Source: a virus (lineage: Duplodnaviria > Caudoviricetes). From it: a stretch of 61,329 bases of DNA. This document shows positions 526 to 61,329 of the stretch, in pieces. Location: positions 1 to 61,329 of IMG/VR virus record IMGVR_UViG_3300028569_000039. The stretch is one strand, 5' to 3'. The position numbers and the translations under genes are program-made. Positions within the stretch are counted from its first letter, which is position 1, and each line of letters opens with the position of its first letter. Under the pieces are notes generated by a model. It worked only from the letters and a program-made list of their open reading frames with translations. It had not been told where the DNA came from and made no database searches.

Positions 526-538
526 ATAATAATACAAA
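526..538 (-). promoter_or_regulatory. Phage promoter core TTTGTATTATTAT, class without GGGCG box (SSB)
   Basis: 13-mer recurring 14 times, always oriented towards a nearby gene start. Confidence 0.75.
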
Positions 539-573
539 AAACGTGACATTTGCTGTTCCACAATGTGAGATAG

Positions 574-2144: not shown

Positions 2145-2157
2145 ATAATAATACAAA
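2145..2157 (-). promoter_or_regulatory. Phage promoter core, class without GGGCG (DUF2800)
   Basis: TTTGTATTATTAT on the minus strand, about 30 bp before the ATG. Confidence 0.75.
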
Positions 2158-3914: not shown

Positions 3915-3946
3915 ATAATAATACAAAAATCCGCCTAAATCCGCCC
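3915..3946 (-). promoter_or_regulatory. Phage promoter GGGCG-N14-TTTGTATTATTAT
   Basis: Exact bipartite consensus. Confidence 0.8.
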
Positions 3947-5311: not shown

Positions 5312-5480
5312 TCCTCATCTCCTTTACCTTGTTTTCTATGACGTCTCGCTCTTCCTTACTGTCACAAATCCAGACACCTAGTAGGTTCTCGTATGCGTTG
5401 ATGTCAATGTCTTCTACGCCGGCGATCGTCTCCATAATGTACTTGCCGTTGTAGTTGTGCTCCACAATAAAGTAAGTCAT
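5286..5480 (-). CDS. Hypothetical protein
   Basis: ORF track, coupled. Confidence 0.6.
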   Translation of the reverse strand: MTYFIVEHNYNGKYIMETIAGVEDIDINAYENLLGVWICDSKEERDVIENKVKEMRNARSGQPS

Positions 5481-5797
5481 AGCTTGAGCTCCTTCTTAAT
5501 AAAATCTACCCCCTTAGCAAAGTGGTAGCGCCAGTGTTTCTCTGTAACGCCGAGATCAGAGTAAGACATGCCGTCTAAGAAACCCTCGATAACGAAGCGC
5601 TGCTTTACCGGCATGCGCTCCTCTATCAGCCTTCTTATGTCGTCAATGTCTTCCTGATCCCATGGCTGCCAGCCCTCGACTACCTGATTTGATACATTGT
5701 CCGACTCATCCTGCTCGATTGGGTCAATGTCCTCGTCAGATAGCCTGGGGGCTATGGCGTTCAGTTTATGTTTTAGTTTTGTTCTTTTTGCGGTCAT
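5477..5797 (-). CDS. Stand-alone sigma-70 region-4-like HTH protein
   Basis: Acidic linker then IRRLIEERMPVKQRFVIEGFLDGMSYSDLGVTEKHWRYHFAKG. Resembles the region-4 pattern LPxxQRxVI...GxSYxEI...GVS. Confidence 0.55.
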   Translation of the reverse strand: MTAKRTKLKHKLNAIAPRLSDEDIDPIEQDESDNVSNQVVEGWQPWDQEDIDDIRRLIEERMPVKQRFVIEGFLDGMSYSDLGVTEKHWRYHFAKGVDFIKKELKL

Positions 5798-5799
5798 GC

Positions 5800-7146
5800 T
5801 TATAATAATACAAAATTCAGTGCGTTTAGAAGGGCGTCTTGCAAATTTATTTTTCCGTCCAGTACCTTGACCACCTGCTCGTCGATACTCTTGGCCACGG
5901 TCAGGTGATGTATGATAACCGGTTTTTCCTGCCCCTGGCGGTAGATCCTAGCATTGGCCTGGATGTAGTTCTCTGAGCTCCATGGTAGATCGAACCACAC
6001 TGTCTGTGCTGTGTCTCCAACGTTGCACTGAAGATTAAGCCCGATTCCGCCGCTTTGCGGGTGGGCAAGGAGCATACGAATCTCGCCACGACGCCACGCC
6101 TCAATGTTGTCATCGTCCAGCACCACCGCCTCTGGGAACTGAAGACGTATTCGTTGGAGCGAATGCTTGAAATGATAGAAGACAAGCGTGGGACTTGAAG
6201 ATTCTTCCATGATCGACTCAAGGCATTCCAGTTTAGCGCGGTGTACTTCTTGTGCCTCTCCTGTTTCATTGTAGATCGCGCCTGATGTGAACTGGAGCAG
6301 CTTGTTCGCCAGTGCCGCTGCTGTTGGAGCTGTGATCTTTTCTTTCTTGACTTCAATGACCATGTCTTTTCTAAGCTGCTCATACTTACTCCTTACGTTT
6401 TTGTCGATCTCAATTTGGTGATATAGCGACGTACAACTAGGCAGCTGTAAGAAATCCTCAGCCTTAAGACTAAAGCAAATATCAGAAATTTTATTGTTAA
6501 TGACTTCATTGCATCCCTCTTTTAGTTTCCAGCTATATACAACCCTGGTTTGCCGGTTCATTTGATCCGGCGTCATGTACTTATCCCTGAACCGGGTCAA
6601 AGACGTCTCCAAACGCTCTCCTAAGTCCAATATACCCACCTGTGACCAGAGATCTTGCATGCCCTGAGGGGTAGGTGTACCTGTGAGGATTAAACGCCGT
6701 GAGAAGCCCTTTAAATGCTTCTTGAGTGCCTTAAAACGCTTGGTGCTCGGATCCTTAAACCGGCTGCTCTCATCTATTACTAAGTTAGTAAACACTAACT
6801 TAAATGGGGCGTCGTTAAAGAGCCATGCCACATTCTCCAGATTGATCAGGTAAATGTCCGCATGGGTTTTTAGCCCGACAATGCGCTGAAGGGGGTTGCC
6901 CATGATCTTGGCCACTTTAAGGTGTCTTAGATGTTCCCACTTCTTGACCTCCGCGTCCCATACCGTCTCCGCTACTCGCTTGGGTGCTATGATCAGCGTC
7001 TTGCCCTGAAACTGTTCCGCTATGATTGTCAGGGTCGTCGCTGTCTTCCCAAGTCCAGGGGGTAGAAACAGACCCAAGTTCGGCACCGACAGCGCCCGGG
7101 ATATGATCTCCTGTTGATATTGGTGTAGCTGCGAGCGCTTTAACAT
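5800..7146 (-). CDS. SNF2-family (SF2) helicase
   Basis: PGLGKT Walker A, IDESS, LTGTP, GIGLNLQ, QANARIYRQGQ. Confidence 0.9.
   Translation of the reverse strand: MLKRSQLHQYQQEIISRALSVPNLGLFLPPGLGKTATTLTIIAEQFQGKTLIIAPKRVAETVWDAEVKKWEHLRHLKVAKIMGNPLQRIVGLKTHADIYLINLENVAWLFNDAPFKLVFTNLVIDESSRFKDPSTKRFKALKKHLKGFSRRLILTGTPTPQGMQDLWSQVGILDLGERLETSLTRFRDKYMTPDQMNRQTRVVYSWKLKEGCNEVINNKISDICFSLKAEDFLQLPSCTSLYHQIEIDKNVRSKYEQLRKDMVIEVKKEKITAPTAAALANKLLQFTSGAIYNETGEAQEVHRAKLECLESIMEESSSPTLVFYHFKHSLQRIRLQFPEAVVLDDDNIEAWRRGEIRMLLAHPQSGGIGLNLQCNVGDTAQTVWFDLPWSSENYIQANARIYRQGQEKPVIIHHLTVAKSIDEQVVKVLDGKINLQDALLNALNFVLL
5802..5814 (-). promoter_or_regulatory. Phage promoter core without GGGCG, 4 nt before the ATG of the sigma4-like gene
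   Basis: TTTGTATTATTATAAGCATG on the minus strand, embedded in the helicase 3' end. Confidence 0.7.
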
Positions 7147-7612
7147 TTTCTTTTACTCTCTTTGTTATTTCGTGTTGCCAATCGGCGACTGCGTACAAAT
7201 CTTTTGCCTCAAACTCGGCCTTAATTCGATTGGCCTTGTCGGATATAAAAACCACGTTACCTCTTACGTAGCCCAGCGCCGGAATTATTCTGTCTAGTGA
7301 CGGGCTGTAAATGTTCTTACCGGCGCCAAGGTTTCCCCATGTCATAGATACATTAAAGATGGGGCAGTTTTCAGTGTAGATTGATCTAAGATACTTCACG
7401 TCTAAATTAAACGGGAGATTCTTTTCTTTGGCACGACGGCGCGAACTTTGAAATGCCTTCTCAAGCGTAAACCAAATCGGATCAGCCCAGCGCTCAGGAA
7501 AAAATCCATTGCGTTTAAGTTTTTGTTTTTCGTAGCCATAAAATACCCAGCCGTCTTCGCGATACTCGCCGCGCTCAAATGGTTTTCCTGTGTTAGGATT
7601 TAGTCGCTTCAT
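6917..7612 (-). CDS. HNH-like (His-Me finger) endonuclease, C-terminus overlapping the helicase
   Basis: CPIF...SPSLDRIIPALGYVRGNVVFISDKANRIK. Confidence 0.7.
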   Translation of the reverse strand: MKRLNPNTGKPFERGEYREDGWVFYGYEKQKLKRNGFFPERWADPIWFTLEKAFQSSRRRAKEKNLPFNLDVKYLRSIYTENCPIFNVSMTWGNLGAGKNIYSPSLDRIIPALGYVRGNVVFISDKANRIKAEFEAKDLYAVADWQHEITKRVKENVKALAATPISTGDHIPGAVGAELGSVSTPWTWEDSDDPDNHSGTVSGQDADHSTQASSGDGMGRGGQEVGTSKTP

Positions 7613-7868
7613 TTATAAACTCCTGTATGTCGTCGTGACTTCGTAGTACATAAACCGGAAAGCCGGCCTCACCTAGCTCGTCAAAGACGTGGATCTGCCT
7701 TGGCGATAGGACTCCAGTTGCTGTCTTCAGCTCCACGAGGTGTGCTTTCTCGTTTAGGAATACTATCCTGTCCGGCACCCCCGTCACGCTTGAGATCCAC
7801 TTGTACGTCAGACCCCCGCTTTCCTTTACCCGTTTTATCAGATACTTTTCTATTTGTTTTTCGAGCAT
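7593..7868 (-). CDS. VRR-NUC nuclease
   Basis: EKQIE...GVPDRIV...VELK...LSPRQ, adjacent to the SNF2 helicase. Confidence 0.85.
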   Translation of the reverse strand: MLEKQIEKYLIKRVKESGGLTYKWISSVTGVPDRIVFLNEKAHLVELKTATGVLSPRQIHVFDELGEAGFPVYVLRSHDDIQEFINEATKS

Positions 7869-8259
7869 TCTTTTCTTTCTCGTGTTCGTATATTTTAAAT
7901 ATCTGACTTACCAGCGAGCCTGTAAGGTATGCGCGGGTCTCGCCGCCGATGCCGTCCTCTTCGCCGATAAACTCTGCGAGGTGATCAATGGCGTGGCTAA
8001 CCTCGTGCGCTATCGTATCAAATTTCTCAGGCACCGTCTCACCAATCTCTGCTAGGTTAAACACTAGGATGATGATGCCCTGTTTGCCATCGCCGATTTG
8101 GTGTGTCTCTGCACAGCCGGTGTCCAGGGCGCTGGCCTTGAGTGTGATGCCGTGGTCTTTGAGGATCTGCTGGAATACCTTATCGTCAAAGCATAGCTTC
8201 ATCACGTCAGGATAAAATCCCACGTTGAGCTTGTAGTAGTCGTACTTTTTAGGTTTCAT
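7681..8259 (-). CDS. HExxH-motif protein (putative metallopeptidase fold)
   Basis: IAHEVSHAIDH...ETRAYL. Confidence 0.55.
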   Translation of the reverse strand: MKPKKYDYYKLNVGFYPDVMKLCFDDKVFQQILKDHGITLKASALDTGCAETHQIGDGKQGIIILVFNLAEIGETVPEKFDTIAHEVSHAIDHLAEFIGEEDGIGGETRAYLTGSLVSQIFKIYEHEKEKNARKTNRKVSDKTGKGKRGSDVQVDLKRDGGAGQDSIPKRESTPRGAEDSNWSPIAKADPRL

Positions 8260-8474
8260 TAGTGCCTTGTGTTTTTAGGTCGGTTAAGGCGCTCGTAAAT
8301 CTCAGCACGCTCTTCGTCGTCTAGCTCGTCGATTGGGATGGCCTCCTCGAAGATCTCGCCGGTCTCTACTAGCTGCGTAATGCCGCGCATCAAGTCCGCT
8401 AGCTCGTCGGGTGTTAGGTCGAGCTCATCAGCCCAACCCTCGTCAAACTCTACTGTCTTTTTCTTCTTAGTCAT
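8259..8474 (-). CDS. Hypothetical acidic protein
   Basis: ORF track. Confidence 0.6.
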   Translation of the reverse strand: MTKKKKTVEFDEGWADELDLTPDELADLMRGITQLVETGEIFEEAIPIDELDDEERAEIYERLNRPKNTRH

Positions 8475-8582
8475 TTCTATGGTACCTATCGTTAGGGTTT
8501 TTAATCATGCTGGCAATTAGGCTATCTATGGTCGGGAACCATTGGATAAACATAAGGCCGTCCGCTTGGTAAATGGTGAAGC

Positions 8583-8840
8583 TCATTCGTACCATCCTCT
8601 TACAAAAAATTGGTCGCCACATGCGTCAATCTCGCTCTGTGGGTAGCCGTTATCTAATAACCACTGACGGGTGTCGTCAATGTGCTCGGGTATCTCTTTT
8701 GGAAAGCCGTACTTCCAGCCACTGGGCGGATCAATCATCTTGCGTTTTGGCTTCTTAAATATGGCGTCCCAGTTGGCCTCGAACTCTTCCTTCGGTACTG
8801 TCATTGGGCGCTTTGCATCACCCTTGCCGCCGTCTCTCAT
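8583..8840 (-). CDS. Hypothetical protein
   Basis: GGKGDAKRP and IDPPSGWKYGFPK motifs. GAGG RBS. Confidence 0.65.
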   Translation of the reverse strand: MRDGGKGDAKRPMTVPKEEFEANWDAIFKKPKRKMIDPPSGWKYGFPKEIPEHIDDTRQWLLDNGYPQSEIDACGDQFFVRGWYE

Positions 8841-9097
8841 TCCTCACTCACTTTCTTAGCACCTGACAGTGTACGCATCTTAGCCAACACTTCAGCTAAC
8901 GGTTCTATCATCATGCACCTACAACTACTAATTGTTATTGGTGCAAACACCCTACCACTATCAGACTCTTCTCGGATGTCGATGAAGTCTTCAAAGAAAC
9001 TACGAACAGTGGCTTTGAGTTCTTCGTGTTCTCGTACCTTCTTCAGTGCATCAAACCCTTCAGTAATTTCTTCTGCTAGGCTGCGTTCATTGTTCAT
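8837..9097 (-). CDS. Hypothetical protein
   Basis: ORF track, coupled. Confidence 0.6.
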   Translation of the reverse strand: MNNERSLAEEITEGFDALKKVREHEELKATVRSFFEDFIDIREESDSGRVFAPITISSCRCMMIEPLAEVLAKMRTLSGAKKVSEE

Positions 9098-9281
9098 ATA
9101 TATCCCATCCTAAGAGCCTACGATTCATATCTGCGTTTTCTTTTTTCAACGCTTCTATTTCAAGCTGTTGCTGTTTGATAATGCTTTCAGCAAGACCAAA
9201 CTGGCGCAGCATGGCTGCGGCTTCTTTTTGATAAGCACAACAGGCACACTCAATTAAATCAGCTAGTTCATTTGCGTTCAT
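9087..9281 (-). CDS. Hypothetical coiled-coil protein
   Basis: ORF track, AGGAG RBS. Confidence 0.6.
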   Translation of the reverse strand: MNANELADLIECACCAYQKEAAAMLRQFGLAESIIKQQQLEIEALKKENADMNRRLLGWDIYEQ

Positions 9282-9282
9282 A

Positions 9283-9543
9283 TCATCTCCTAAACTGCGG
9301 CACCTTGTTAAAGCGGCCGAATGTTAATCTCATCTTCAGTGCGTTAAGCCGCCCGAATATCTTGTTGCGATAACCTTGGCTTGCACGACGTAGGCGCTGG
9401 CTTAGTGTCCGGCGCTGGCGTGGGTTGCGACATAGTATCTTAATCTGTTTGTAATCGGTGACAAGCCGGCGCGAACCAAAACCCTTGAAGACTTGGGTGA
9501 AGGTGTTGCGCCGGATTGTTTTCCTAAACCGGAAGTTTGTCAT
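9283..9543 (-). CDS. Very Arg-rich small protein (probable start MTNFRFRK at 9543)
   Basis: The longer track ORF overlaps a better upstream ORF at 9524..9697. Confidence 0.5.
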   Translation of the reverse strand: MTNFRFRKTIRRNTFTQVFKGFGSRRLVTDYKQIKILCRNPRQRRTLSQRLRRASQGYRNKIFGRLNALKMRLTFGRFNKVPQFRR

Positions 9544-9697
9544 CGCTCTCGCCTGACGGGCACACTGGTTTACCCAACATTGCAAACTCTGCATACTGCC
9601 ACGCCGTGTCACGTACCTCTGCCGGCGTCGCGCCACGGGCGACTAAGCCCATGACTGCCGCGACTGCAAAAGCAAACTCCTGCTCTTTATCTGTCAT
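9524..9697 (-). CDS. Hypothetical protein, 57 aa (not in ORF track)
   Basis: MTDKEQEFAFAVAAVMGLVARG... ATGA overlap with the HNH stop. Confidence 0.6.
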   Translation of the reverse strand: MTDKEQEFAFAVAAVMGLVARGATPAEVRDTAWQYAEFAMLGKPVCPSGESDDKLPV

Positions 9698-10230
9698 TTT
9701 GTTTTTTCCTTAATTGAAGTTACCATAGCCTCTAAAATCGGCAATATTTTTTGTTCGTCAAATTGATTTAATGCTAGGTTGACTGCGCATAGTACTACCC
9801 TTGTATTTTCTGGTGTGTAATTTTTGTTACTGCTGTCAATTCTATCTAATGACGGCGCGTAAGCGTTTTGTTTTTTGTCCCCAGTGAAAGAAAAGTCAAA
9901 TAAAAGGTTTGTAAATTCGCAAGTGCCTTTTAATAATTTCTGTTCAATCCACTGTCTGTCTATAGTCACAATAGCGTCATTTTCTTTTGCTCTGTTTTTA
10001 GCACTTAACAACATTCTGTTACTTCTGCCTTTCATTGTTTGTGCATAAGCTAAATTAAAGGAGTAGTTTTCAAGTTTTCTTTTTTTAAATCTTTCAGGCG
10101 AAATCCACAGCTCAACAAAAAATCCGTTTTGTTTTACTTGTTTTTTATTGTACGCATGAAATAAAAATCCATCTTCTCTTTCGTCACCGTAAGAGAAGGG
10201 CGCTCCTGTTTTGGGGTTTTTGCGTTGCAT
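9694..10230 (-). CDS. HNH-like endonuclease, paralog of 6917..7612
   Basis: Shared N-terminus (NPKTGAPF..G..REDGF.F) and APSLDRIDS...YTPENTRVV...VN. Visibly AT-rich. Confidence 0.75.
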   Translation of the reverse strand: MQRKNPKTGAPFSYGDEREDGFLFHAYNKKQVKQNGFFVELWISPERFKKRKLENYSFNLAYAQTMKGRSNRMLLSAKNRAKENDAIVTIDRQWIEQKLLKGTCEFTNLLFDFSFTGDKKQNAYAPSLDRIDSSNKNYTPENTRVVLCAVNLALNQFDEQKILPILEAMVTSIKEKTK

Positions 10231-10238
10231 TAGATACT

Positions 10239-10315
10239 CCACTTAGTAGTTGATGTTAGAGGGGCTATTCCATAAAGTGGTATGGAAAGGGCTGGCCAGC
10301 CTTTTCGCCTTCTCT
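10239..10315 (-). ncRNA. Candidate cis-regulatory 3-way-junction RNA with RBS pseudoknot
   Basis: AGAG..GGC/GCC..CTCT closing stem and two hairpins. Loop CCACTT is complementary to AAGTGG overlapping the GGAG RBS. Confidence 0.5.
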
Positions 10316-10319
10316 ATAT

Positions 10320-10351
10320 ATAATAATACAAAATCTAGCACAAAACCGCCC
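10320..10351 (-). promoter_or_regulatory. Phage promoter GGGCG-N14-TTTGTATTATTAT
   Basis: Exact bipartite consensus. Confidence 0.8.
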
Positions 10352-12660
10352 TAAAACACAGCATCGTCAAATGTTTCAATGGATTCCACATACTTCTGTG
10401 CCTTTGCGTTTAATCTTACTCCCATGTATACCTGCATACGATCACCGTTCTCGCGTGTCTGCTCGGAGCGTACTAACTGCTCCTGCGTCGCCGCCAAGAA
10501 TCTGCGCTTGAACGCCTGCTCGGTTCCTGGGGGCATTGACTTCTTGAGCGCCCAGTGTTTGTAGCAGGCAAACACGTCCTCTTTGCGAACCATGTAGTCC
10601 GGATGGAACTCCAAGGCGTCCTCTGAGAATGATCCGATTGGATTGCCCAGCTCGGCCATCAAGTCCAAGTACTCCTTACCGCTAGCAGGTTGTACAAAGT
10701 GCCCACCCCTTGCAATGCGTCTCTTAAGTCCTTCCATCGCCCAGTTAAAGATACCGCCGAGCTCTTGCTCCAGCTTGTGTGACAAGTCGGTGTCCTCCTT
10801 ATTAAAAAACGACTTGCTCATCTTGAGGACGATCATGCGGCCGGTGAGGGCGTTACTGTTCTCGGTTAGTTGCAGCACCTCGTTCGAGTAGATTACTAAT
10901 CGTGTCGGTAGGTAGCCGTTCCATGCCTCTTTGTTTTTACGATTGACCGTAATCGTATCCCCGCCGACAATACGCAACAGCTGAGATACCACAGCACTGC
11001 GATTGCGCTCAGGAGCACGAGCGTCGGTAAAAGAAGCAAGTAGCTTACCCAGCCATGGTTGTAGTCCGAATGTGTCACACAGTTCTCCTAGCTCGGGCGC
11101 GACGGTGTTGTGCTGTCCAAGCAGTGCCACCAGCACCTTGTTGATGGTACCCTTGCCACTACGGCGTGGGCCGATGATGTTAAAAAACTTTTGCTGTCTC
11201 GTGTCTCCCGACAGGATGTAGCCAAACATCTCCTGTAGCGTGTCAATCGACTCTTGGTCATCACCCCACACCGAGCGCAAGAACGTGTCCCACGTAGGCG
11301 ATACGGCCGTCTGGTTGTACTCGAACGGCAGTGAGTTCTGTGTAAAGAAGCCCAGTGAGTGCGGTATCAGTATGCTGTCTTCCAGATGGAAGATGCCGTT
11401 CTTGAGCGAGACCAGCTTGGATGCGGCTGGCTTAGCTTGCGAGTAGTCTTCTAACCAAATCGGTGGCTTGGTATTCGGGTGGTTGGGTAAGTGCACGACC
11501 GACTTGATTGCGTCCAGTGCACCTGATACCGAGGCAGGTGATGGATTGAACGGGACTAAGGCACCCTGCTTGCCCGACTTCTTGCACTTCTCTAAGAACT
11601 GGTACACCTTGGAGCGGATGGTGGCCTCCTCGATTACCTCGTAGTGCGTGCCGGCGTAGATAAAGAAGTCGTCTGCATAATGCACCAGCTTGTAGCCCTC
11701 CTCGCTCGAGTAGTAATTGTCCAAGAACGTACGGGCATGGTTCATCGCCCCCGCGTCAAGGATAATCTCGCCCCGTGCTAAGGCCTCCTTGCGATCTTGT
11801 TGGTTGACCTGAAACAAGAGCGAGCGCAGTGTCGCGCCCGATCCCTTGAACGTCCTCCACTTGTTCTCGCACGAGTAGTCTCCCGTGGCAGTGTAGCCTG
11901 CACCAGTCGATGACCACCGATCCCATGCCTCACAGGCCTCGACGTCGCCGCCAAACTGGTGGTGCAGGATCGCGCCTACCTTGAGCCAGTCCGAGTAGCC
12001 CATGTTGGGATCTAACTTGGCTAGGATCCCGGTCTCGACACGGTGAATGTCATACCCCTCGAGCGGTGCCGTGTAGTCACCGAATGCGTCGCCCGTGTTG
12101 TGGAACGTGCGCTCGGGGATCACTAAGCTCAAGTCCTGCACCTCGGCCGGCACCGTGCCGCCTATGTGACGACCAGTGACGGTAAAGAAGCGTGAGTTCG
12201 CATACGCCTCAAAACCGATGCTATGGTCTGCGTGTGAGGCGAATGGGTTGGATCGGGTGAATATCTTAACGCCTGTGCCGGACGGACTAACCTCCATGTA
12301 GCCCTCGACTCGGTCTGCTAATTGCTGCATTGCAGCATTTATGAAACGGGCTGTGTGGTGGTCGTAGCAGTCATCCAAGTCGATGCCTACCAAGTCGTCA
12401 TCATGCGAGAATACAAAGCCCACGCCGTCAAACTTGTGCGTATTGTAGGCCTGCTCGACTGACATAAAGTCCGTCCACGTCTTGGGGTCTGTCGATGATG
12501 CGTACCGCCCAGTGACCTGTAGCGGCATCTTAGCCCATCTCCTGTTCTCCCCATCACCGACCTGCACGAACGACCACATCACCCAGCGGGGCACCTTACG
12601 GAGCTCTATGGGTATGTTGGCCAGCTCGACGGGCAGGCAGAATGGTTTGGTATCGCTCAT
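10351..12660 (-). CDS. Primase-polymerase / PriCT-2 / D5-like SF3 helicase fusion
   Basis: GIDLDD and EVSPSGTG prim-pol motifs, YSDWLKVG...WDRWS PriCT-2, GPRRSGKGT Walker A. Confidence 0.9.
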   Translation of the reverse strand: MSDTKPFCLPVELANIPIELRKVPRWVMWSFVQVGDGENRRWAKMPLQVTGRYASSTDPKTWTDFMSVEQAYNTHKFDGVGFVFSHDDDLVGIDLDDCYDHHTARFINAAMQQLADRVEGYMEVSPSGTGVKIFTRSNPFASHADHSIGFEAYANSRFFTVTGRHIGGTVPAEVQDLSLVIPERTFHNTGDAFGDYTAPLEGYDIHRVETGILAKLDPNMGYSDWLKVGAILHHQFGGDVEACEAWDRWSSTGAGYTATGDYSCENKWRTFKGSGATLRSLLFQVNQQDRKEALARGEIILDAGAMNHARTFLDNYYSSEEGYKLVHYADDFFIYAGTHYEVIEEATIRSKVYQFLEKCKKSGKQGALVPFNPSPASVSGALDAIKSVVHLPNHPNTKPPIWLEDYSQAKPAASKLVSLKNGIFHLEDSILIPHSLGFFTQNSLPFEYNQTAVSPTWDTFLRSVWGDDQESIDTLQEMFGYILSGDTRQQKFFNIIGPRRSGKGTINKVLVALLGQHNTVAPELGELCDTFGLQPWLGKLLASFTDARAPERNRSAVVSQLLRIVGGDTITVNRKNKEAWNGYLPTRLVIYSNEVLQLTENSNALTGRMIVLKMSKSFFNKEDTDLSHKLEQELGGIFNWAMEGLKRRIARGGHFVQPASGKEYLDLMAELGNPIGSFSEDALEFHPDYMVRKEDVFACYKHWALKKSMPPGTEQAFKRRFLAATQEQLVRSEQTRENGDRMQVYMGVRLNAKAQKYVESIETFDDAVF

Positions 12661-12680
12661 TTTATCCTTTCAGTGTACAT

Positions 12681-12693
12681 ATAATAATACAAA
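12681..12693 (-). promoter_or_regulatory. Phage promoter core without GGGCG (primase)
   Basis: TTTGTATTATTAT 20 bp before the ATG. Confidence 0.75.
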
Positions 12694-12781
12694 ACACCTC
12701 GTCAGCGTCATTCCACATTGCGAGATAATTCCACGGGGTTGCTTAAAAAATAGGCAAAATGGGTGCGCGCCAGCGCTTTTT

Positions 12782-12892
12782 TGACAGGGTGTACAGGGTA
12801 GACACGCCTTTTTTACTTTTTTTCAAACTTTTTTTAAAAAAAATAAATAAAGTATGGAAAACACTAAAAACGTCGTGCTACCCTGTCTACCC
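12782..12892. repeat. Origin-like element, copy 1 (direct repeat of 18945..19056)
   Basis: ACAGGGT iterons, T/A-tract core, inverted GGGTAGACA/TGTCTACCC arms. Confidence 0.8.
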
Positions 12893-12990
12893 AAGACACT
12901 TTTAAACAATAGCTAACGGAAACAACGACTTACAAGCGAAATGTTTCACGCAATGTTTCACGAAATATACACAACATTAACAAACATAGC

Positions 12991-13003
12991 TAAGTGCTTG
13001 ATT
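12991..13003 (-). promoter_or_regulatory. IHF-consensus site
   Basis: AATCAAGCACTTA matches WATCAANNNNTTR. Confidence 0.45.
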
Positions 13004-13224
13004 TATATAGGAAAGCAAGTTACCGTACCGCCACCCCCTGGAATACACCGAATGATTGGCGCGGGTTGGGTGTTGGCAAATGCCGCGGCGACGTGCAAGA
13101 AAAAGTAGACTGCCGTAAATATTAGTACGCACTTGACGATCTTGTCCATATTGTCCCCCTCTGTTTGTTGTAGTCCGCAGTCACAACTGCGCCCCTGATT
13201 ACAGTTTCCGTTACATCCCCTCAT
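13003..13224 (-). CDS. Hypothetical Cys-rich/membrane protein
   Basis: ORF track. Confidence 0.5.
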   Translation of the reverse strand: MRGCNGNCNQGRSCDCGLQQTEGDNMDKIVKCVLIFTAVYFFLHVAAAFANTQPAPIIRCIPGGGGTVTCFPI

Positions 13225-13418
13225 AGTGCCACCTCGTAGTCTAGTCGTTTAACCATATTGTATGCCCACTTACGGAAGGCATCCCTGTTCTCGGGAGTCT
13301 GCTCGTCCCCTTCGTCCCATTCAGCAAACACGATAAGGGATCCTAGCGCATCATAGAACTCGATGCCTGTCATGTTGCCGTCCTTGTCTAATACGTCCTG
13401 TGGTATAGCCGTTGTCAT
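13221..13418 (-). CDS. Hypothetical protein
   Basis: ORF track, coupled. Confidence 0.65.
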   Translation of the reverse strand: MTTAIPQDVLDKDGNMTGIEFYDALGSLIVFAEWDEGDEQTPENRDAFRKWAYNMVKRLDYEVAL

Positions 13419-13645
13419 GCCTGTGCCTTTCTTAGTAGTTCCCTAGCAAACCGTAGTACGTGCACACTACCATCAAACCCGTGCGCCGTCTCTTCTGCCA
13501 AGTCGTAGATTTCCTGATCGGTGAGTTGCTTTGATGGGTGTTTGTACAGTGGTATCAGCCCGTCTCGTAGCTCCTCGTCAAACTCGTCGTACTGCTCGTT
13601 AGTGTAGAACTCGTATTCATCTATCCACCCCGCAGGCTTGCTCAT
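13415..13645 (-). CDS. Hypothetical protein
   Basis: ORF track, coupled. IPLY...LTDQEI pattern common in small phage ORFs. Confidence 0.65.
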   Translation of the reverse strand: MSKPAGWIDEYEFYTNEQYDEFDEELRDGLIPLYKHPSKQLTDQEIYDLAEETAHGFDGSVHVLRFARELLRKAQA

Positions 13646-13992
13646 TCATCCCCCTGTGCTATTGAGTAGGTGTCGCGTAGCCTTGGCGACTCATCGTTCC
13701 ATGAATCACTGGCACCGTAGTCACCTCGGATCGCACTCATGCGCTCTGTCTTCCTGAACTCAGGCTCGACTGCCCACCATGCGCTGGATGCCTCCAAGTA
13801 CTCAATGAACTCGTCATTCTGTTCAAAGAGTGGATGGTTTAGCCCCTCAACGTCAACGGTCTGTGTAACGGTTGCCTGCCGTACCCATGGCCTCTTGGTA
13901 TAGCCCTCAGTGCGTACAACACCCACCCTGTCACGCGCGGTAATGAATCGTTTGTAGGCGCGTTGCTGTTCGTCTGTTAGTTGTAATGTCAT
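13642..13992 (-). CDS. Hypothetical protein
   Basis: ORF track, coupled. Confidence 0.65.
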   Translation of the reverse strand: MTLQLTDEQQRAYKRFITARDRVGVVRTEGYTKRPWVRQATVTQTVDVEGLNHPLFEQNDEFIEYLEASSAWWAVEPEFRKTERMSAIRGDYGASDSWNDESPRLRDTYSIAQGDE

Positions 13993-14561
13993 TCCTCATT
14001 CTCCTCATTAAAGTTGTCGTCACTGATACTGCCTAGTGATACTGGCTCACGCGCCAAGCACGCTCGCAGTCGGTATATCTTCTTGGCGTCCACGTCCAGC
14101 GCGGTGGCTAGCTCCTGCACCGATGGCTTACGGCCTAGTGTCTGAGACAGTACGCGCTCGTTGTAGTGCATACGGTAGATGTCCTCCACCACGTTGATGG
14201 GTAGTCGGATAATGTTTGCCGTGTTGTCAATCTCCCTGCGCACGCCGCGCTCAATGAACGAGCGAGCAAATGCCGCGAATGGTATCTTGCCCATCGGTTT
14301 CCATCTCTTTGCCGCCTCCAGTAGCTTCTCATTGCCGATTGCCAGTATGTCCTCCTGTGGTAGCTTACTATGTTCCCATACCGTCATCTTGGTGACTACA
14401 TGGGGCACAAAACGTAGGTTATGCCTTACCAGCTTCTCCAGCGCGTTGTCATCCCCAGTGGCGATGCGTTTTGCTAGTGCCTTCTCCTCTTCTAGTGTCA
14501 GTGGCTCTATGCCGTACAGTGATTTCAGATAGTCCGACTTGATGTCGTTGTTACTTGCCAT
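13989..14561 (-). CDS. RpoD/RpoS-like sigma factor with regions 1.2, 2 and 3 but no region 4
   Basis: YLKSL..IEPLTLEEEKALAKRI..GD..ALEKLVRHNLRFV, then IIRLP, then LSQTLGRKPSVQELA. Ends at EPVSL plus an acidic tail. Confidence 0.85.
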   Translation of the reverse strand: MASNNDIKSDYLKSLYGIEPLTLEEEKALAKRIATGDDNALEKLVRHNLRFVPHVVTKMTVWEHSKLPQEDILAIGNEKLLEAAKRWKPMGKIPFAAFARSFIERGVRREIDNTANIIRLPINVVEDIYRMHYNERVLSQTLGRKPSVQELATALDVDAKKIYRLRACLAREPVSLGSISDDNFNEENEE

Positions 14562-14705
14562 AATGGTGCCTTTTTATGTAAGAGAAAATCTCTTTATGCA
14601 ACATGAGCGCAAGGCCAGCCACAACGGCAAAAACACTGTCAAAGCTAAACCCATAATTGTCCAATATAAACCATCCGTAGATTAACGCAAAAAATCCGAT
14701 GATAT

Positions 14706-15020: not shown

Positions 15021-15290
15021 TTATACATTCTCCTGTAATGGTTTGACTACTACTGCCTTGATGTGTTGGACGGTTGTCACTGATTTGACAAAGGCCTCGT
15101 CGCTCAGTTTGCGTACCAGTGGTGCGCTGATTTGTTCCCTGTCATATTCCAACACCTCGGCAAAGAACTGCTCGCCTTCATAGTTGCCTACACCACGCGC
15201 GATGAGCTCTGCCTTGAGCTTGCTCTTGATCTCCTCAAGGGCTTGGATCTGTTGTGATACTGCACCGTACTGGTCAATGATGTTTTTCAT
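15021..15290 (-). CDS. Hypothetical early protein
   Basis: AGGAG RBS. Confidence 0.7.
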   Translation of the reverse strand: MKNIIDQYGAVSQQIQALEEIKSKLKAELIARGVGNYEGEQFFAEVLEYDREQISAPLVRKLSDEAFVKSVTTVQHIKAVVVKPLQENV

Positions 15291-15303: not shown

Positions 15304-15540
15304 TTAATGTTTTTTAAATGCTATTTCGTATTCGACGCCGTTGTCATCTACTTCACCGTCTACTTGTATGTAATCATACCCGAGTTCTTCGCAATAGTCA
15401 AATACTTCCTCCTCAGTGTTAAATTCACGCACCTCTTTGATGTTTTGAATAACCGCCAACGGTGTGTAATCCCGAGGCGCGTTCAAAGTGTCTATCGAAA
15501 ATTCCCCAAAAACGATGGTGCCTATGTAATAAGATGTCAT
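15304..15540 (-). CDS. Hypothetical acidic early protein
   Basis: GGAGG RBS, ATGA coupling at 15540. Confidence 0.6.
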   Translation of the reverse strand: MTSYYIGTIVFGEFSIDTLNAPRDYTPLAVIQNIKEVREFNTEEEVFDYCEELGYDYIQVDGEVDDNGVEYEIAFKKH

Positions 15541-15845
15541 TGTAAACCCTCCAAAAAGTCTAACCATTCTTGACCACGGTGCTCAAGCACAAACTCGGGC
15601 GATCCCTTGGTGCCTGCCTTGACCTCGGTGCGTGATGGTATGCGGTTGCCGTAGTAGTCATTGAACGACTCATTACCAAGTAAGCACCAGCCATCTGTGA
15701 TGGCCTGCATCATGGCACGGCCGTACGATCCCTGCATTGACCATAAGCCGCCGTTGATAGCACGTTGGATGGAGGCATAGAGCTCGTACTCGTCGACTGC
15801 GTCGTCTGCCTCTATGTTGTTGATGTCTTTTAATGATAGTGTCAT
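15537..15845 (-). CDS. Hypothetical early protein
   Basis: WSMQGSYGRA motif, GGAG RBS. Confidence 0.7.
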   Translation of the reverse strand: MTLSLKDINNIEADDAVDEYELYASIQRAINGGLWSMQGSYGRAMMQAITDGWCLLGNESFNDYYGNRIPSRTEVKAGTKGSPEFVLEHRGQEWLDFLEGLQ

Positions 15846-16697: not shown

Positions 16698-16751
16698 ATA
16701 TCCTCCGTTGTTTAATTCATTATACCGATTTTGGCCGGCCGTTGTCAATAA

Positions 16752-18061: not shown

Positions 18062-18090
18062 ACTATAACGACCTTTGGAATGGATGTCAA
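18062..18090 (-). promoter_or_regulatory. Host sigma70 early promoter
   Basis: TTGACA-17 bp-TATAGT at the head of the small-gene operon. Confidence 0.8.
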
Positions 18091-18316: not shown

Positions 18317-18784
18317 GTCAATAGGTGTTTACCCTAATAGCCAGCTAAGTTAGTCGCCACTAAGTTAATGCACCAAAATGGTGCACGCGCCAGCTTGGCG
18401 CCGTGTCACGTTGCTGTGTTGTTATCTTGCCACAGTGTTGCGTGCATACAACAGAGCTGACGTATGCACCACATTGGTGCACTAACTTAGTGGCTACTAA
18501 CATCATGCACCACATTGGTGCACGCGCCTGCTTGCCTCGGCAGACAGGGTGCTGGGCGCGGAGTCAATAGGTGTTTACCCTAGGTGTTGTGCCAGCGCAA
18601 CACTGGACTGTTGGGCTCGGCATACAGGGTGCTGGGCGCGGAGTCAATAGGTGTTTACCCTAGGTGTTGCGCGCATACAACAGTGTGGCAAGATAACAAC
18701 GCCGCAATCTGACGCGAGCCTGCGTTTCACAATGTGAAATGCGTTACCACAATGCGGAACAGGGGGTGTTGTTTTTAAACCACA
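18317..18784. repeat. Non-coding array of repeated operator-like palindromes (includes 3 NtrC-consensus boxes)
   Basis: TGCACCA-N3-TGGTGCA x3, GTCAATAGGTGTTTACCCTA x3, TGTKG-N8-CMAC(A/G) x6, TTAGT-N4-ACTAA x2, CACAATGYG x2. 46-bp direct repeat at 18544/18624. Confidence 0.8.
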
Positions 18785-18944: not shown

Positions 18945-19056
18945 TGACAGGGTGTACAGGGTAGACACGCCTTTTTACTCTTTTTTAAATTTTTTTTAAA
19001 AAAAAAATAAATAAAGTATGGAAAGAGTGAAATAAGCCGTGCTACCCTGTCTACCC
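18945..19056. repeat. Origin-like element, copy 2
   Basis: Near-identical to 12782..12892. Confidence 0.8.
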
Positions 19057-19085
19057 TTGACAAACCTGCTTTATTTGCACTGGAA

Positions 19086-19117
19086 GGGCGACAACCCCTG
19101 GTTCTTTGTATTATTAT
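19086..19117 (+). promoter_or_regulatory. Phage promoter GGGCG-N14-TTTGTATTATTAT (terminase operon)
   Basis: Exact consensus. ATG follows after 4 nt. Confidence 0.8.
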
Positions 19118-19121
19118 GTGT

Positions 19122-19430
19122 ATGAACAAATACGTATACCAAATCCAAGGCGCCCTGGAGAGTAGGCAAGGGCAGTTCTTGGGGCTTCGTGTCCTGGTGT
19201 GCGATGTGTACCACTTTGATTCGGTTGATATACCTGTAGAGGTACTAGATTCAGAAACCGCAAAGTATTTACAGTTCAGGCTTTCTATTACGGCGGAGAC
19301 GGTCAACATAGCAAAACTGCCGGTTGAAATTCAAAATAGGATACGCGCGCCGTTAGGGCGATGGCTGGACCACTGGGTCCTAGATAATTTTTATGGCGAT
19401 AACAGCAAACACAAAGATACTAACGCTTGA
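19122..19430 (+). CDS. Hypothetical protein
   Basis: First ORF of the plus arm. Confidence 0.7.
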   Translation: MNKYVYQIQGALESRQGQFLGLRVLVCDVYHFDSVDIPVEVLDSETAKYLQFRLSITAETVNIAKLPVEIQNRIRAPLGRWLDHWVLDNFYGDNSKHKDTNA

Positions 19431-20385: not shown

Positions 20386-21821
20386 CAACAAAACAAGAGG
20401 CCATCCTTAAGAAATTTGCCGAGGAGCGCAAGAACTGGCCGCAGCAACAGCTAGATGCCGCCATCTGGCGCATCAAGTGGAGCCTACAAGCGCTGCCACA
20501 CCAAAAAGAACCAGAGGATGGGGAGTATGACACGTTTCTTATGCTTGCCGGTCGTGGATCGGGCAAGACTCACACGGCCTCTCACTGGATTGGCATTCGT
20601 GCTTGGCTGTATGACAACACCCGCTGGCTCGTCACAGCTCCCACCTCAAACGATATACGTGCAACTTGTTTCGAGGGGGACTCTGGACTTATCAGTATCA
20701 TTCCCTCGTCACTTATCCGTGATTACAACAAGTCACTCTTTGAGATTACCCTCACCAACGGATCCATCATCCAAGGTATTCCAGCATCCGAACCAGAACG
20801 GTACCGTGGTAAGCAGTACCATGGGGCCTGGTTCGACGAGCTGTGTGCATTCGATTACATCGACGATGCCTACGATGGCGTACAGTTTACCCTCCGTCTT
20901 AAGGACCCGCGAATCCCCCGGGTGCAGCAGATTATTACCACCACTCCCAAGCCCAAGGAACTGATTGTAGACCTTAACGAGGGCAAGGTAGGGGGTGATG
21001 TATACGTAGCCAACGCGAGCTCCTACGACAACCGTGCGAACCTCTCAGAGACCTTCTTTAAGCAGCTAGAGACATACGAGGGCACCGACATTGGTAAGCA
21101 GGAGATCTACGGCGAGATCTTGGATCCAGAAGCAGCCGGTATCATCAAGCGTAAACATTTCCGCATGTGGCCAGCAAACAAACCCACTCCCGTCCTAGAG
21201 TATGTGATTGCCTCGTATGACCCGGCGACCAGCGAGAAGACGGTAAATGACCCTACTGCCTGTACGGTCTGGGGTGTGTTTGAGAGGGAAGACGCTGGGA
21301 CCTCTGTCATACTGTTAGATGCATGGGACGCGCACCTGTCGTACCCTGAGCTGCGCCGTAAGGTGATTGACGACTTCAAGGAAGTAGTCTATGGGGCAGA
21401 CAATGACTTCGGTAAGGGCAAGAAGGCCGACCTAATACTGATGGAAGACAAGTCTGCCGGTATCTCGTTGATCCAAGAACTCCAGGGCGCTGGTGTCCCT
21501 GTCCGTGGATACAACCCAGGCCGCGCGGATAAGATCCAGCGTATCAACATCGTGGCACCGCTCGTGGTTAAGGGCAAGGTGTTCATCCCCGAAGAGCCAA
21601 GCAACCCAGGCGAGTACGCCAACTGGGCTAAACGCTTCATGAGGCAAGTTTGTTCATTTCCGGAGGCTGGGGGCCATGACGACTACGTTGACAGCCTCAG
21701 CCAAGCCCTACGCGTCCTCAGGGACTCTGGCTGGCTGCAGCTTGATCCGCTGCCTGCTAGGGACTATGACTACGCTGACGACGACTCAAACAAGAAGTTT
21801 AGCAATCCCTACGCACAATAG
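20376..21821 (+). CDS. terL: Terminase large subunit
   Basis: AGRGSGKT, WFDE, YDPA, EDKSAG, HDDYVD. Confidence 0.92.
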   Translation: MSLTTKQEAILKKFAEERKNWPQQQLDAAIWRIKWSLQALPHQKEPEDGEYDTFLMLAGRGSGKTHTASHWIGIRAWLYDNTRWLVTAPTSNDIRATCFEGDSGLISIIPSSLIRDYNKSLFEITLTNGSIIQGIPASEPERYRGKQYHGAWFDELCAFDYIDDAYDGVQFTLRLKDPRIPRVQQIITTTPKPKELIVDLNEGKVGGDVYVANASSYDNRANLSETFFKQLETYEGTDIGKQEIYGEILDPEAAGIIKRKHFRMWPANKPTPVLEYVIASYDPATSEKTVNDPTACTVWGVFEREDAGTSVILLDAWDAHLSYPELRRKVIDDFKEVVYGADNDFGKGKKADLILMEDKSAGISLIQELQGAGVPVRGYNPGRADKIQRINIVAPLVVKGKVFIPEEPSNPGEYANWAKRFMRQVCSFPEAGGHDDYVDSLSQALRVLRDSGWLQLDPLPARDYDYADDDSNKKFSNPYAQ

Positions 21822-21852
21822 GGCGGAAACGCCTCCATTCTTGTATTATTAT
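21821..21852 (+). promoter_or_regulatory. Phage promoter GGGCG-N14-CTTGTATTATTAT
   Basis: Exact consensus. Confidence 0.8.
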
Positions 21853-26021: not shown

Positions 26022-26053
26022 GGGCGGATTTTCTAGCTCCTTTGTATTATTAT
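26022..26053 (+). promoter_or_regulatory. Phage promoter GGGCG-N14-TTTGTATTATTAT (head operon)
   Basis: Exact consensus. ATG follows after 4 nt. Confidence 0.8.
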
Positions 26054-26057
26054 AAGT

Positions 26058-26249
26058 ATGAAAGACTTTATTTCTGAAATTATTTCGCGAACGCGCAATG
26101 AACAGGCAAAATTGGCGGAAACCCTCACCGCTGGAAGTAATGTGAATAGCTTTGACGATTACCAGCGCTTAGTTGGTAGGTTTGAAGGATTTAGGGAAGT
26201 ACTCGACATTATAAATGAAATTCTGAGGGAAGACGAAGACGACCTGTAA
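26058..26249 (+). CDS. Hypothetical protein
   Basis: SFDDYQRLVG motif, located before groES. Confidence 0.7.
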   Translation: MKDFISEIISRTRNEQAKLAETLTAGSNVNSFDDYQRLVGRFEGFREVLDIINEILREDEDDL

Positions 26250-29980: not shown

Positions 29981-30012
29981 GGGCGGTTTTCCTACTTTTC
30001 TTGTATTATTAT
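29981..30012 (+). promoter_or_regulatory. Phage promoter GGGCG-N14-CTTGTATTATTAT
   Basis: Exact consensus. Confidence 0.8.
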
Positions 30013-37326: not shown

Positions 37327-37339
37327 TTTGTATTATTAT
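37327..37339 (+). promoter_or_regulatory. Phage promoter core without GGGCG (second lysozyme)
   Basis: TTTGTATTATTAT 21 bp before the ATG. Confidence 0.7.
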
Positions 37340-37360: not shown

Positions 37361-37870
37361 ATGATCCAATTTATCGTGGTATGGCTGGTTGTGTTCGCCA
37401 TCATATTTAACAGCGTCCAGAGCAGCCCAGAGCAGCCCTTTGAGTGGGTAGCGGAGTCAACGCTCCAGCTCATAGAAAACTTTGAGGGAAAGCGCCACAC
37501 AGCCTATCGAGACAGCCAGGGTAACTGGACGATCGGGGTGGGGCACCTAATCAAGCGTGAGACGCGTCATTTGCTGCATACAGAGCTTTCCGAGGAGCAG
37601 GTAAGGGGTATCCTACACCGAGACCTAGAAAAGTGCTCTACGGCCCTGCAAACGTCTCTAAACGTGTCTGTTACCAGACTACAAGCCGACGCATTGCACA
37701 GCCTCTGCCATAACATCGGACCAGACAATATGCGACGGTCTGACGTAGTAAAGCACCTCAACGCTGGAGATCCTGAAAAGGCGGCCCAGGCGTTTATGAA
37801 CTGGGCTAACCCACCAGAGCTACGAAAGCGCAGAAAGGCTGAAAAAGCACTGTTCTTAGCAGGCACATAG
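37361..37870 (+). CDS. Second GH24 lysozyme with N-terminal signal/TM
   Basis: GGAGG RBS, E-x8-D-x5-T (FEGKRHTAYRDSQGNWTIG), RRKAEKALFL. Confidence 0.85.
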   Translation: MIQFIVVWLVVFAIIFNSVQSSPEQPFEWVAESTLQLIENFEGKRHTAYRDSQGNWTIGVGHLIKRETRHLLHTELSEEQVRGILHRDLEKCSTALQTSLNVSVTRLQADALHSLCHNIGPDNMRRSDVVKHLNAGDPEKAAQAFMNWANPPELRKRRKAEKALFLAGT

Positions 37871-37901
37871 GGCGTTTTAGGCCCTTTCTTTGTATTATTA
37901 T
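37870..37901 (+). promoter_or_regulatory. Phage promoter GGGCG-N14-TTTGTATTATTAT
   Basis: Exact consensus. Confidence 0.8.
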
Positions 37902-44703: not shown

Positions 44704-44735
44704 GGGCGCTAAGTGCCCTTTTTTTGTATTATTAT
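44704..44735 (+). promoter_or_regulatory. Phage promoter GGGCG-N14-TTTGTATTATTAT overlapping a hairpin-U tract
   Basis: Exact consensus. GGGCGCT-A-AGTGCCC-T7. Confidence 0.8.
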
Positions 44736-58762: not shown

Positions 58763-58775
58763 ATAATAATACAAA
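58763..58775 (-). promoter_or_regulatory. Phage promoter core without GGGCG (DNA polymerase)
   Basis: TTTGTATTATTAT on the minus strand. Confidence 0.75.
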
Positions 58776-61104: not shown

Positions 61105-61329
61105 ACCGCAAAGTCTGCAGCGGCGGATGTAGAGCCACCGAATTTCTCACCGTCCTCTAACTTCTGGACGTTATTTAAACCAGCTGCAATGCCTTTAGAT
61201 CCGCTTGTATCGTACGGATACAATGTGATTGAGGCACGACCATAGCAACCTGAGTAAAACTCGCTGGTGTCAATGATTGGGTTCAAGTCTGCATCTACAA
61301 TGCCTGGCTTTTCATTAGAGCTAGCGTTG
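61101..61329 (-). CDS. DUF2815 SSB, C-terminal part
   Basis: FYSGCYGRASI...GIAAGLNNVQKLEDGEKFGG...ADF. Confidence 0.85.
   Translation of the reverse strand, partial: NASSNEKPGIVDADLNPIIDTSEFYSGCYGRASITLYPYDTSGSKGIAAGLNNVQKLEDGEKFGGSTSAAADFAV

Follow-up and report, generated by a model that had tools for sequence, protein, structure and literature searches.

The phage genome recorded as IMGVR_UViG_3300028569_000039 (Duplodnaviria; Caudoviricetes), whose 61,329 bp make up the whole of that IMG/VR virus record and are called the window below, encodes a sigma-70-family factor that ends before region 4 (sigma190, 13989..14561, minus strand) and, 8.2 kb farther along that strand, where the replication block ends, a small protein predicted to carry a region-4-like fold (ORF106, 5477..5797, minus strand). 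The two proteins are complementary in domain content; this is an observation about content, and their joint function is a prediction. An earlier, sequence-only reading of this DNA had taken the pair for a split sigma factor and had built a temporal cascade upon it, an interpretation that is partly supported by the analysis described here and whose underlying observation is confirmed. The explanation that has the best support, although we place it a little short of probable, is that the sigma function of this phage resides in two polypeptides, with sigma190 reading a promoter core and ORF106 binding RNA polymerase and an upstream GGGCG box at a later time in infection.

Membership of sigma190 (190 amino acids) in the sigma-70 family is clear for regions 1.2, 2, and 3, which are followed by the first part of region 3.2, and region 4 is absent. 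The protein matches the Pfam models Sigma70_r1_2 (24.4 bits, cut-off 22) and Sigma70_r3 (28.5 bits, cut-off 25.3); the match to Sigma70_r2 is marginal, lying just below its cut-off of 24 (23.8 bits, E 3.9e-5). PHROG 351, a sigma factor family, also matches (E 1.8e-22). In a phmmer search of the PDB, residues 5-178 align with residues 96-265 of Staphylococcus aureus SigA (E 5.9e-19) and residues 20-182 with residues 352-514 of Escherichia coli RpoD. The C-terminus lies 8 residues beyond the position aligned with RpoD residue 514, within region 3.2 and, given where we take the sigma finger to be, just past its tip. No Pfam match to region 4 is found in sigma190, as had been claimed from the sequence, and PF08281 and PF04545, run against all six frames of the whole window, returned nothing at E <= 10. 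Of 252 homologues of sigma190, the 120 listed are all 189-200 amino acids long, and because this length is conserved among them, the truncation is not an accident of assembly. In an alignment of 15 sequences the acidic C-terminal tail is conserved and E186 and E187 are invariant, and a search with sigma190 for proteins of at least 334 amino acids yielded three RpoD-like sequences only, at 30-36% identity. Upstream of the sigma gene, on the minus strand, there are two sites that resemble host-type sigma-70 promoters, in agreement with the earlier claim: TTGACA-18-TATAAT at 16719..16748, which matches the consensus at 12 of 12 positions, and TTGACA-17-TATAGT at 18062..18090, at the head of the early minus-strand block, which matches at 11 of 12. 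These sites, which are consensus matches only, are consistent with early expression of sigma190 by the host enzyme.

ORF106, a protein of 106 amino acids, has a basic N-terminus, an acidic motif at about residues 16-30, and a four-helix, sigma-region-4-like domain at residues 48-104. In its AF2 model, residues 1-47 are acidic, lack regular secondary structure, and are of low confidence, and the domain is formed by helices at 48-61, 64-74, 79-82, and 86-104 with a pLDDT of about 90. When this model was compared with 48,161 chains by VIA-align, the best match was region 4 of SigR (root-mean-square deviation 1.9 A over 57/65 residues) at Z 7.2, a value within the range that is common for small helical models in VIA-align. 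CnrH (6.9), BldN (6.8), and SigL (6.7) came next, and SigH, SigF, SigD, RpoE, SigB, and SigW were also among the top matches, the highest-ranked set extending from Z 7.2 to 6.2. Region 4 of sigmaE on -35 DNA gave Z 6.3, and helix-turn-helix (HTH) domains of the LuxR/NarL type reached only 4.1-4.7. The top rows of a Foldseek search were likewise region 4 of SigL, SigD, SigR, and SigW, but with E values of 0.6-2. As far as a predicted structure can tell, then, ORF106 very probably has a region-4-like fold placed after a linker-like acidic segment, so that this much of the sequence-only reading is upheld.

The family to which ORF106 belongs is large and uniform. It has 349 homologues, the 120 listed all being 103-106 amino acids long, and 213 IMG/VR stretches have been confirmed to carry it. 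Among close relatives an N-terminal APRLSDEDxDPxEQD and a C-terminal TEKxWRYHFxK are invariant, and both motifs persist in representatives whose identity is 26-50%. Conservation within the domain is highest in the putative recognition helix, in which T85, K87, W89, R90, Y91, and H92 are invariant or nearly so; this helix is different in P0261, P0262, and P0264.

Homology of ORF106 to sigma factors is likely, and rests on indirect links through members of its family. Among 19 family members, five match Sigma70_r4_2 weakly (best E 0.0046), and this is the only Pfam family that more than one of the 19 match; four match SigH models of NCBIfam. The most informative case is P0256, which is found from ORF106 by phmmer at E 4.4e-7 and whose residues 17-100 match positions 123-207 of the 218 in the SigH model (E 9e-6). 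This match begins at the acidic N-terminal motif, closes where the HTH ends, and thus corresponds to the linker together with region 4. In addition, P0268 matches SigH (E 6e-4) and P0261 matches SigM/ECF (extracytoplasmic function) models (E 2e-3). A representative search with ORF106 without restriction on length gave 29 matches, none of which is a sigma factor, although no dedicated search among longer proteins was made; three longer matches (P0251, P0254, and P0263) look chimeric or repetitive. A joint fold prediction of sigma190, residues 820-950 of E. coli beta, and ORF106 scored 0.28 against a mark of 0.32, was run without controls, and speaks neither for nor against an assembly.

The two genes occur together in related phages. 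The sigma gene is present in every one of the 16 loci with ORF106 whose sequence extends 3 kb or more upstream of the primase start, some of these loci being near-identical contigs, and both genes are found in loci from each of the five relatives used for promoter comparison, G001-G005 (L040, L047, L086, L080/L084, and L103). One of the 16, L122, from a distant lineage, has the same synteny and encodes ORF106 together with a sigma of 181 amino acids at 38% identity. The co-occurrence that had been expected is therefore borne out, as are two-box promoters in G001-G005, described below. More telling than syntenic co-occurrence is that four relatives (L009:1076-1381, L083:7610-7948, L084:9953-10360, and L085:8982-9278) have a second ORF106 paralogue, about 30% identical and with the same TEKxWRYH helix, at a distance of 0.5-1.2 kb upstream of the truncated sigma gene. 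This paralogue is situated between homologues of the window genes 15304..15567 and 15021..15290; in the window itself, where 13 nucleotides separate these two genes, the second paralogue is absent.

The promoters to which such a sigma would respond can be read against the layout of the genome. The early and replication arm consists of minus-strand genes that run from about 18.9 kb down to position 1 and again from 60.8 to 56.7 kb; among them are those for primase, two HNH endonucleases, an SNF2 helicase, an exonuclease, a DNA polymerase, and ribonucleotide reductase. The plus strand carries the genes of 19.1-56.7 kb, with terminase first, and we take this block to be the virion genes, judged by gene sizes and order alone. 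A 12-mer core, TTGTATTATTAT, usually extended as ATATAG, is present in 14 exact copies, seven per strand, each in the direction of the genes. Eight of these copies have, exactly 20 nucleotides upstream of the core, GGGCG, a pentamer whose frequency in the window is about 0.001 per position.

Six of the seven plus-strand cores, in the virion arm, bear the box: 19086..19117 (GGGCG 19086-19090, core 19106-19117, ATG of gene 19122 at offset 16), 21821..21852 (GGGCG 21821-21825, core 21841-21852, ATG of gene 21860 at offset 19), 26022..26053 (GGGCG 26022-26026, core 26042-26053, ATG of the open reading frame 26058..26249 at offset 16), 29981..30012 (GGGCG 29981-29985, core 30001-30012), 37870..37901 (GGGCG 37870-37874, core 37890-37901), and 44704..44735 (GGGCG 44704-44708, core 44724-44735). 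On the minus strand two of seven do so, at 3915..3946 (core 3926..3915, GGGCG 3946..3942) and at 10320..10351 (core 10331..10320, GGGCG 10351..10347), the latter just downstream of the primase gene and upstream of the block that runs from HNH to SNF2 to ORF106. The six cores without GGGCG comprise one in the virion arm (37328..37339, plus strand) and five on the minus strand: 526..570 (core 537..526, with a palindrome-like box at 556-570), 2145..2156 (start 2156, directly after a terminator-like hairpin and upstream of the exonuclease gene), the core of ORF106 (start 5813), the primase promoter at 12681..12725 (core 12692..12681, with a palindrome-like box at 12711-12725 over the -35 zone), and 58763..58774 (start 58774, directly after a terminator-like hairpin and upstream of the DNA polymerase gene).

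Each of G001-G005 has its own variant of the core, for example TTGCATTATTGT, TTGCATTAATAT, TTGCATTAGTAG, and TTGCATAAGTAG, and all five have an (A/T)AGGGCGG box upstream of it; the roughly 13 bases between the boxes vary. Over six genomes with 73 core matches, in which the genome-wide frequency of GGGCG is 0.0004-0.001 per position, GGGCG is found within the 60 nucleotides upstream of a core only at -20 (34 times) or at -19 (once). As judged from these sequences, the promoter is bipartite, with a fixed, asymmetric, -35-like element, and the spacer would be 17-18 nucleotides if a -10-like hexamer begins 3-4 nucleotides into the core. A single, asymmetric box at a fixed distance is what would be expected of the target of a monomeric region 4 that is held on the polymerase, and both the box and the recognition helix are conserved in G000-G005. 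In the 11.9 kb covered of the distant lineage L122, no clear promoters were seen. Some copies of GGGCG can pair with downstream bases. That the pentamer is no more than the 5' arm of terminator hairpins has been ruled out: the spacer is unconserved and often non-complementary, and the exact distance is kept.

The same promoters bear on translation. At genes 19122 and 26058 and at ORF106, all with the ATG at offset 16, and at gene 21860, with offset 19, Shine-Dalgarno sequences are absent, and the arrangement of core and ATG at the 63-amino-acid open reading frame 26058..26249 is kept in G001, G002, G004, and G005. Because the ATG lies 16-19 nucleotides from the core start and is not preceded by a Shine-Dalgarno sequence, the transcripts are suggested to be leaderless or near-leaderless.

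A palindrome, TTTCACATTGTGAAA, is perfect at 18725-18739 and recurs with 2-3 mismatches at 556-570 and 12711-12725, lying there across the -35 zone of two promoters without GGGCG, those at 537 and 12692. With up to three mismatches there are seven strand-wise matches from five sites, palindromic sites matching on both strands, compared with a mean of 2.6 in shuffles; since this count is not far above that of the shuffles, the argument depends on the positions. The palindrome looks like an operator for a dimeric regulator, and its presence at the two promoters would mean that other regulators act on the same core.

ORF106 itself is preceded by a core-only promoter in the window. The gene of an SNF2-family helicase (5800..7146, minus strand; Pfam SNF2-rel_dom, E 1e-21) always precedes ORF106, and within its 3' end lies an exact TTGTATTATTAT (5802..5813, minus strand) with the ORF106 ATG at offset 16 and no GGGCG at -20. 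A core-like motif is present at the end of SNF2 in 70 of 71 close loci, in none of them with GGGCG; ORF106 follows the helicase directly in 56 of the 70, and a gene of about 1.4 kb is inserted in 14. In the remaining locus, L044, there is no core at the end of SNF2 and one directly before ORF106. The motif at this site tracks each genome's own core variant even where the amino acids of the helicase differ, and for this reason it would be a promoter rather than coding sequence alone. The private, GGGCG-less promoter that had been proposed for ORF106 thus stands for the window and its close relatives. It does not stand for five divergent ones (G003, G005, L090, L095, and L102), which have no ORF106 core and in which the ATG overlaps the SNF2 stop codon, so that this promoter would be a trait of the window's sub-clade and not of the family. 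Upstream of ORF106, the replication arm also holds two HNH/endonuclease VII-like genes on the minus strand (6917-7612 and 9694-10242), the first of which overlaps the start of the SNF2 gene by 230 nucleotides in another frame. One weak PHROG match is to an 'Srd anti-sigma factor' (E 1e-8), which ranks below the endonuclease matches.

Taken together, the protein and promoter sequences have led us to the following model. Host sigma-70 promoters in the early minus-strand block would give rise to sigma190, which, with host core RNA polymerase, would recognize TTGTATTATTAT(ATATAG) as an element of the -10 or extended -10 type. ORF106 would then be supplied from the end of the replication block as a free-standing module of linker and region 4; its four-helix domain would take the place of sigma region 4 on the beta flap and there read AGGGCGG, an asymmetric box in which GGGCG begins 20 nucleotides upstream of the core. 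Initiation at the eight promoters with GGGCG, those that serve the majority of virion genes, would thereby be strengthened or made possible. As to what sigma190 might do unaided, residues 1-390 of Thermus aquaticus sigmaA, which lack region 4.2, initiate on some promoters (PMC3173786). Core-only promoters could, on this precedent, run on sigma190 alone. Binding of ORF106 to RNA polymerase, to sigma190, or to GGGCG is a predicted role.

Several results weigh against this model. The same T. aquaticus precedent implies that a region 4 in trans would not be required, and the Z of 7.2 reported above is, for a small helical domain, ordinary. The third helix of the ORF106 domain (79-82) is only four residues long. 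The sequence-only reading had looked to Sigma70_r4 for a decision, and here the outcome is divided: the modeled fold is sigma-4-like, but ORF106 itself has no match in Pfam (including Sigma70_r4 and Sigma70_r4_2, E <= 10), in PHROG, or among the NCBIfam sigma models. No sigma came out of PDB searches with two ORF106 profiles, A1 and A2. (Their best matches, phosphoenolpyruvate carboxykinase and a portal protein at E 0.007-0.04, were judged to be chance.) Compared with the RpoD-like P0270 and P0271 by hhalign, A2 gave no significant result (E 0.38 and 0.56); what short local alignments there were, likewise non-significant, fell on region 4.2 of the former and region 4.1 of the latter. Furthermore, stand-alone sigma-4-like HTH proteins of about 110 amino acids, which we treat as leads only, are common in phages and Bacillota, and because they are, a region-4-like fold is by itself no proof of a role as a sigma subunit.

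The genetic arrangement also leaves room for doubt. The sigma and ORF106 genes lie far apart; all relatives are syntenic, for which reason co-occurrence reflects largely shared ancestry and is not independent; and the early paralogue provides no evidence of covariation, because its recognition-helix residues are the same. Where ORF106 has a core of its own, this overlaps helicase codons, and the divergent relatives described above have none. In addition, the GGGCG promoter at 10331 lies upstream of ORF106 in the same direction of transcription. Finally, the assignment of GGGCG to a virion class and of bare cores to a replication class is imperfect: it holds for six of the seven plus-arm cores, but the promoters at 10331 and 3926 carry the box in the minus arm (two of seven) and the virion-arm core at 37328 does not. 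The split between the classes is thus not absolute, and the timing of the proposed cascade is purely a prediction.

Of the alternatives, the foremost, which we regard as unlikely, is that ORF106 is a free-standing sigma-4/HTH activator, comparable to the small activators of phage late genes, that binds the GGGCG box or some other site and helps a self-sufficient sigma190-polymerase by ordinary contacts, off the region 4 site of the beta flap. The clusters nearest to ORF106 in the Atlas, again leads only, are small stand-alone sigma-4-like/HTH proteins of about 95-115 amino acids, and the ability of a sigma without region 4.2 to initiate alone, the distance between the two genes, and the six of 14 cores that have no GGGCG in any case would all suit such an activator. 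However, a box that is single, asymmetric, and at -20 in 34 of 35 instances is more like a sigma element than like the site of a dimeric activator, and the acidic N-terminal segment, which in P0256 aligns with the sigma2-sigma4 linker of SigH, would be needless in a plain activator. Nor do the RinA/ArpU-type models, which we take to be those of phage late activators, appear among the 17 NCBIfam families listed at E <= 1 for the 19 ORF106 members.

It is less probable still, and in our view distinctly so, that ORF106 has nothing to do with sigma190, being an HTH protein of the replication module with a generic small fold, and that sigma190, perhaps with other regulators, serves all promoter classes. 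The constant place of ORF106 after SNF2, often with translational coupling, the lack of a significant match of the window's ORF106 to a sigma hidden Markov model, and the moderate Z scores would fit this view. Against it, the top structural matches are sigma region 4 and not other classes of HTH, family members match SigH and ECF sigma models, and in four relatives a paralogue sits beside the sigma gene. Least probable of the three is that ORF106, like T4 gp33 (a precedent as the second subunit of a split sigma; 10.64898/2026.10.01.756105), is a region 4 mimic without promoter specificity that occupies the flap, blocks region 4 of host sigma-70, and shifts polymerase to sigma190-dependent, -35-independent promoters, with GGGCG read by another factor or by sigma190: the sigma-4-like fold, the linker-like N-terminus, and an early paralogue beside the sigma gene in four relatives would suit such a take-over of the host, but nothing in the domain is conserved more than the putative recognition helix, as befits a specific ligand such as DNA, and no other candidate reader of GGGCG has been identified.

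If the sigma function is indeed shared between sigma190 and ORF106, the paralogue allows a wider proposal, which we offer as doubtful: that this clade has a modular sigma, in which a constant melting subunit (regions 1.2-3 plus the finger) is completed in trans by exchangeable subunits of linker plus region 4 that are separately timed. ORF106, made with the replication genes, would switch on the AGGGCGG virion promoters, and the sigma-adjacent paralogue of some relatives would act earlier.

Next to sigma190, a gene for a 116-amino-acid protein (ORF116, 13642..13992, minus strand) starts within an overlap with the sigma stop codon and is conserved right after sigma: there are 24 tblastn matches, and in 12 of 16 loci it lies at most 60 nucleotides from sigma. 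RGDYG and NH are its invariant motifs, and in its AF2 model a helix and a beta-hairpin are followed by a long helix. Nothing in the PDB matches it at E <= 0.001, and no Pfam family does so above chance. As a gene that abuts sigma, ORF116 was considered as an alternative region 4 and was ruled out by this fold and the lack of PDB and Pfam matches. It could be another polymerase-associated factor.

The window, from lake-water metagenomes, is probably a near-complete phage genome of about 61 kb. Its record is classed as linear and 74% complete, but a direct repeat of 163 bp, 98% identical, is found at its ends (1-163 and 61167-61329), and terminal repeats are also present in two relatives of 65.9 and 63.7 kb that are both rated complete; the judgment of near-completeness is based on these repeats. 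Among the 24 runs listed for the window sequence, none is an RNA run. In a collection of phage isolates, there was no DNA match to 13400-14700 and no tblastn match to ORF106, and the matches to sigma190 were general sigma genes, all below 60% identity (27-35% in the rows listed); no cultured close relative was found there.

Other features of the genome were seen in passing. Two consecutive, overlapping open reading frames on the plus strand, 19393-20385 and 20376-21821, both match terminase large subunit families, and the terminase gene (19393-21821) may be split, frameshifted, or interrupted. Long internal repeats lie within virion genes at 31963-33003 and 48192-48493, one with periods that are multiples of 9 nucleotides, and there is a 15-nucleotide tandem, GTTACAGGTACAGGC, with a 9/15-nucleotide repeat nearby; these are probably collagen-like or fiber repeats. 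Between the two arms, the non-coding stretch 18317-18680 holds an iteron-like cluster of direct repeats, with three exact copies of GTCAATAGGTGTTTACCCTA, an 80-nucleotide tandem duplication, and copies of ATGCACCACATTGGTGCAC. In addition, a 90-nucleotide segment at 12787-12898 is repeated at 18950-19062 with 78% identity, each copy having an AT-rich stretch of about 75 nucleotides between inverted GGGTAGACAGG-like words. One copy is at the divergent early/late junction and the other just upstream of the primase promoter, and the repeat could act as origin, terminator, or regulatory site.

In sigma factors, region 4 and the linker are normally part of a single chain, an arrangement thought to matter for holoenzyme assembly, reading of the -35 element, abortive initiation, and promoter escape. 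If the model is correct, a natural sigma cut at the finger, with its region 4 on a separate protein, would be a ready tool for dissecting the contribution of each part, and phages would have a new way of timing their late genes. The promoters are clean, with a core of 12-18 nucleotides and one fixed box, and the family is abundant in fresh water. Even if ORF106 is only an ordinary activator, a widespread sigma that naturally lacks region 4 has been documented, along with its promoter set. The sequence-only reading had taken the mechanism to be undescribed; this fails for the kind, since split sigmas as such have been described already, and holds for the particular architecture, to which newness is limited. 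In the full-text literature, subscription-only papers being outside its scope, no such mechanism was found for a sigma-70-family factor with regions 1.2 and 3. What sets the case apart is a large subunit that has these two regions, a small subunit that combines a linker with a DNA-reading helix, and genes that are distant from each other.

How far the pair resembles known systems can be seen from each in turn. In T4, gp55 is a minimal protein that resembles region 2, gp33 is not known to read DNA, and the sliding clamp is needed for activation. Here, in contrast, the large part keeps regions 1.2, 2, and 3 together with the finger, the small part has a conserved HTH recognition helix, the promoters contain a conserved -35-like box, and no link to a clamp was seen. 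Bacillus subtilis SigO-RsoA and Tn916 Sig7-Sig8 are each encoded by genes that lie side by side, and they are ECF-like and comprise regions 2 and 4 only; in the window, a group-1/3-like sigma with regions 1.2 and 3 is broken inside region 3.2, and 8.2 kb separates the two genes, whose promoter contexts differ. In phage phiEco32, gp36 is a complete ECF-type sigma and gp79 is a transcription factor that displaces the host sigma. Chain F of 9m7y, taken for comparison with phiEco32, ranks 42 among the VIA-align matches of ORF106, at Z 4.4.

There are likenesses as well. T4 gp55/gp33, SPO1 gp33/gp34, B. subtilis SigO-RsoA, and Tn916 Sig7-Sig8 are all known split sigmas (10.64898/2026.10.01.756105). 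As is proposed here, the T4 pair divides a phage sigma function between two proteins, one related to region 2 and a small one at the place of region 4 on the beta flap; in SigO-RsoA (YvrI-YvrHa) and Sig7-Sig8, two polypeptides supply regions 2 and 4 and read the -10 and the -35 element; and SPO1 gp33 and gp34, likened by description only, are two phage proteins that jointly direct late transcription. The phiEco32 pair offers a phage sigma that is helped by a second small phage protein on the polymerase (PMC12276001). Finally, the T. aquaticus sigmaA fragment 1-390 is a cut made in the laboratory (PMC3173786), of which sigma190 is the natural equivalent, cut earlier and conserved in more than 100 of the relatives listed.

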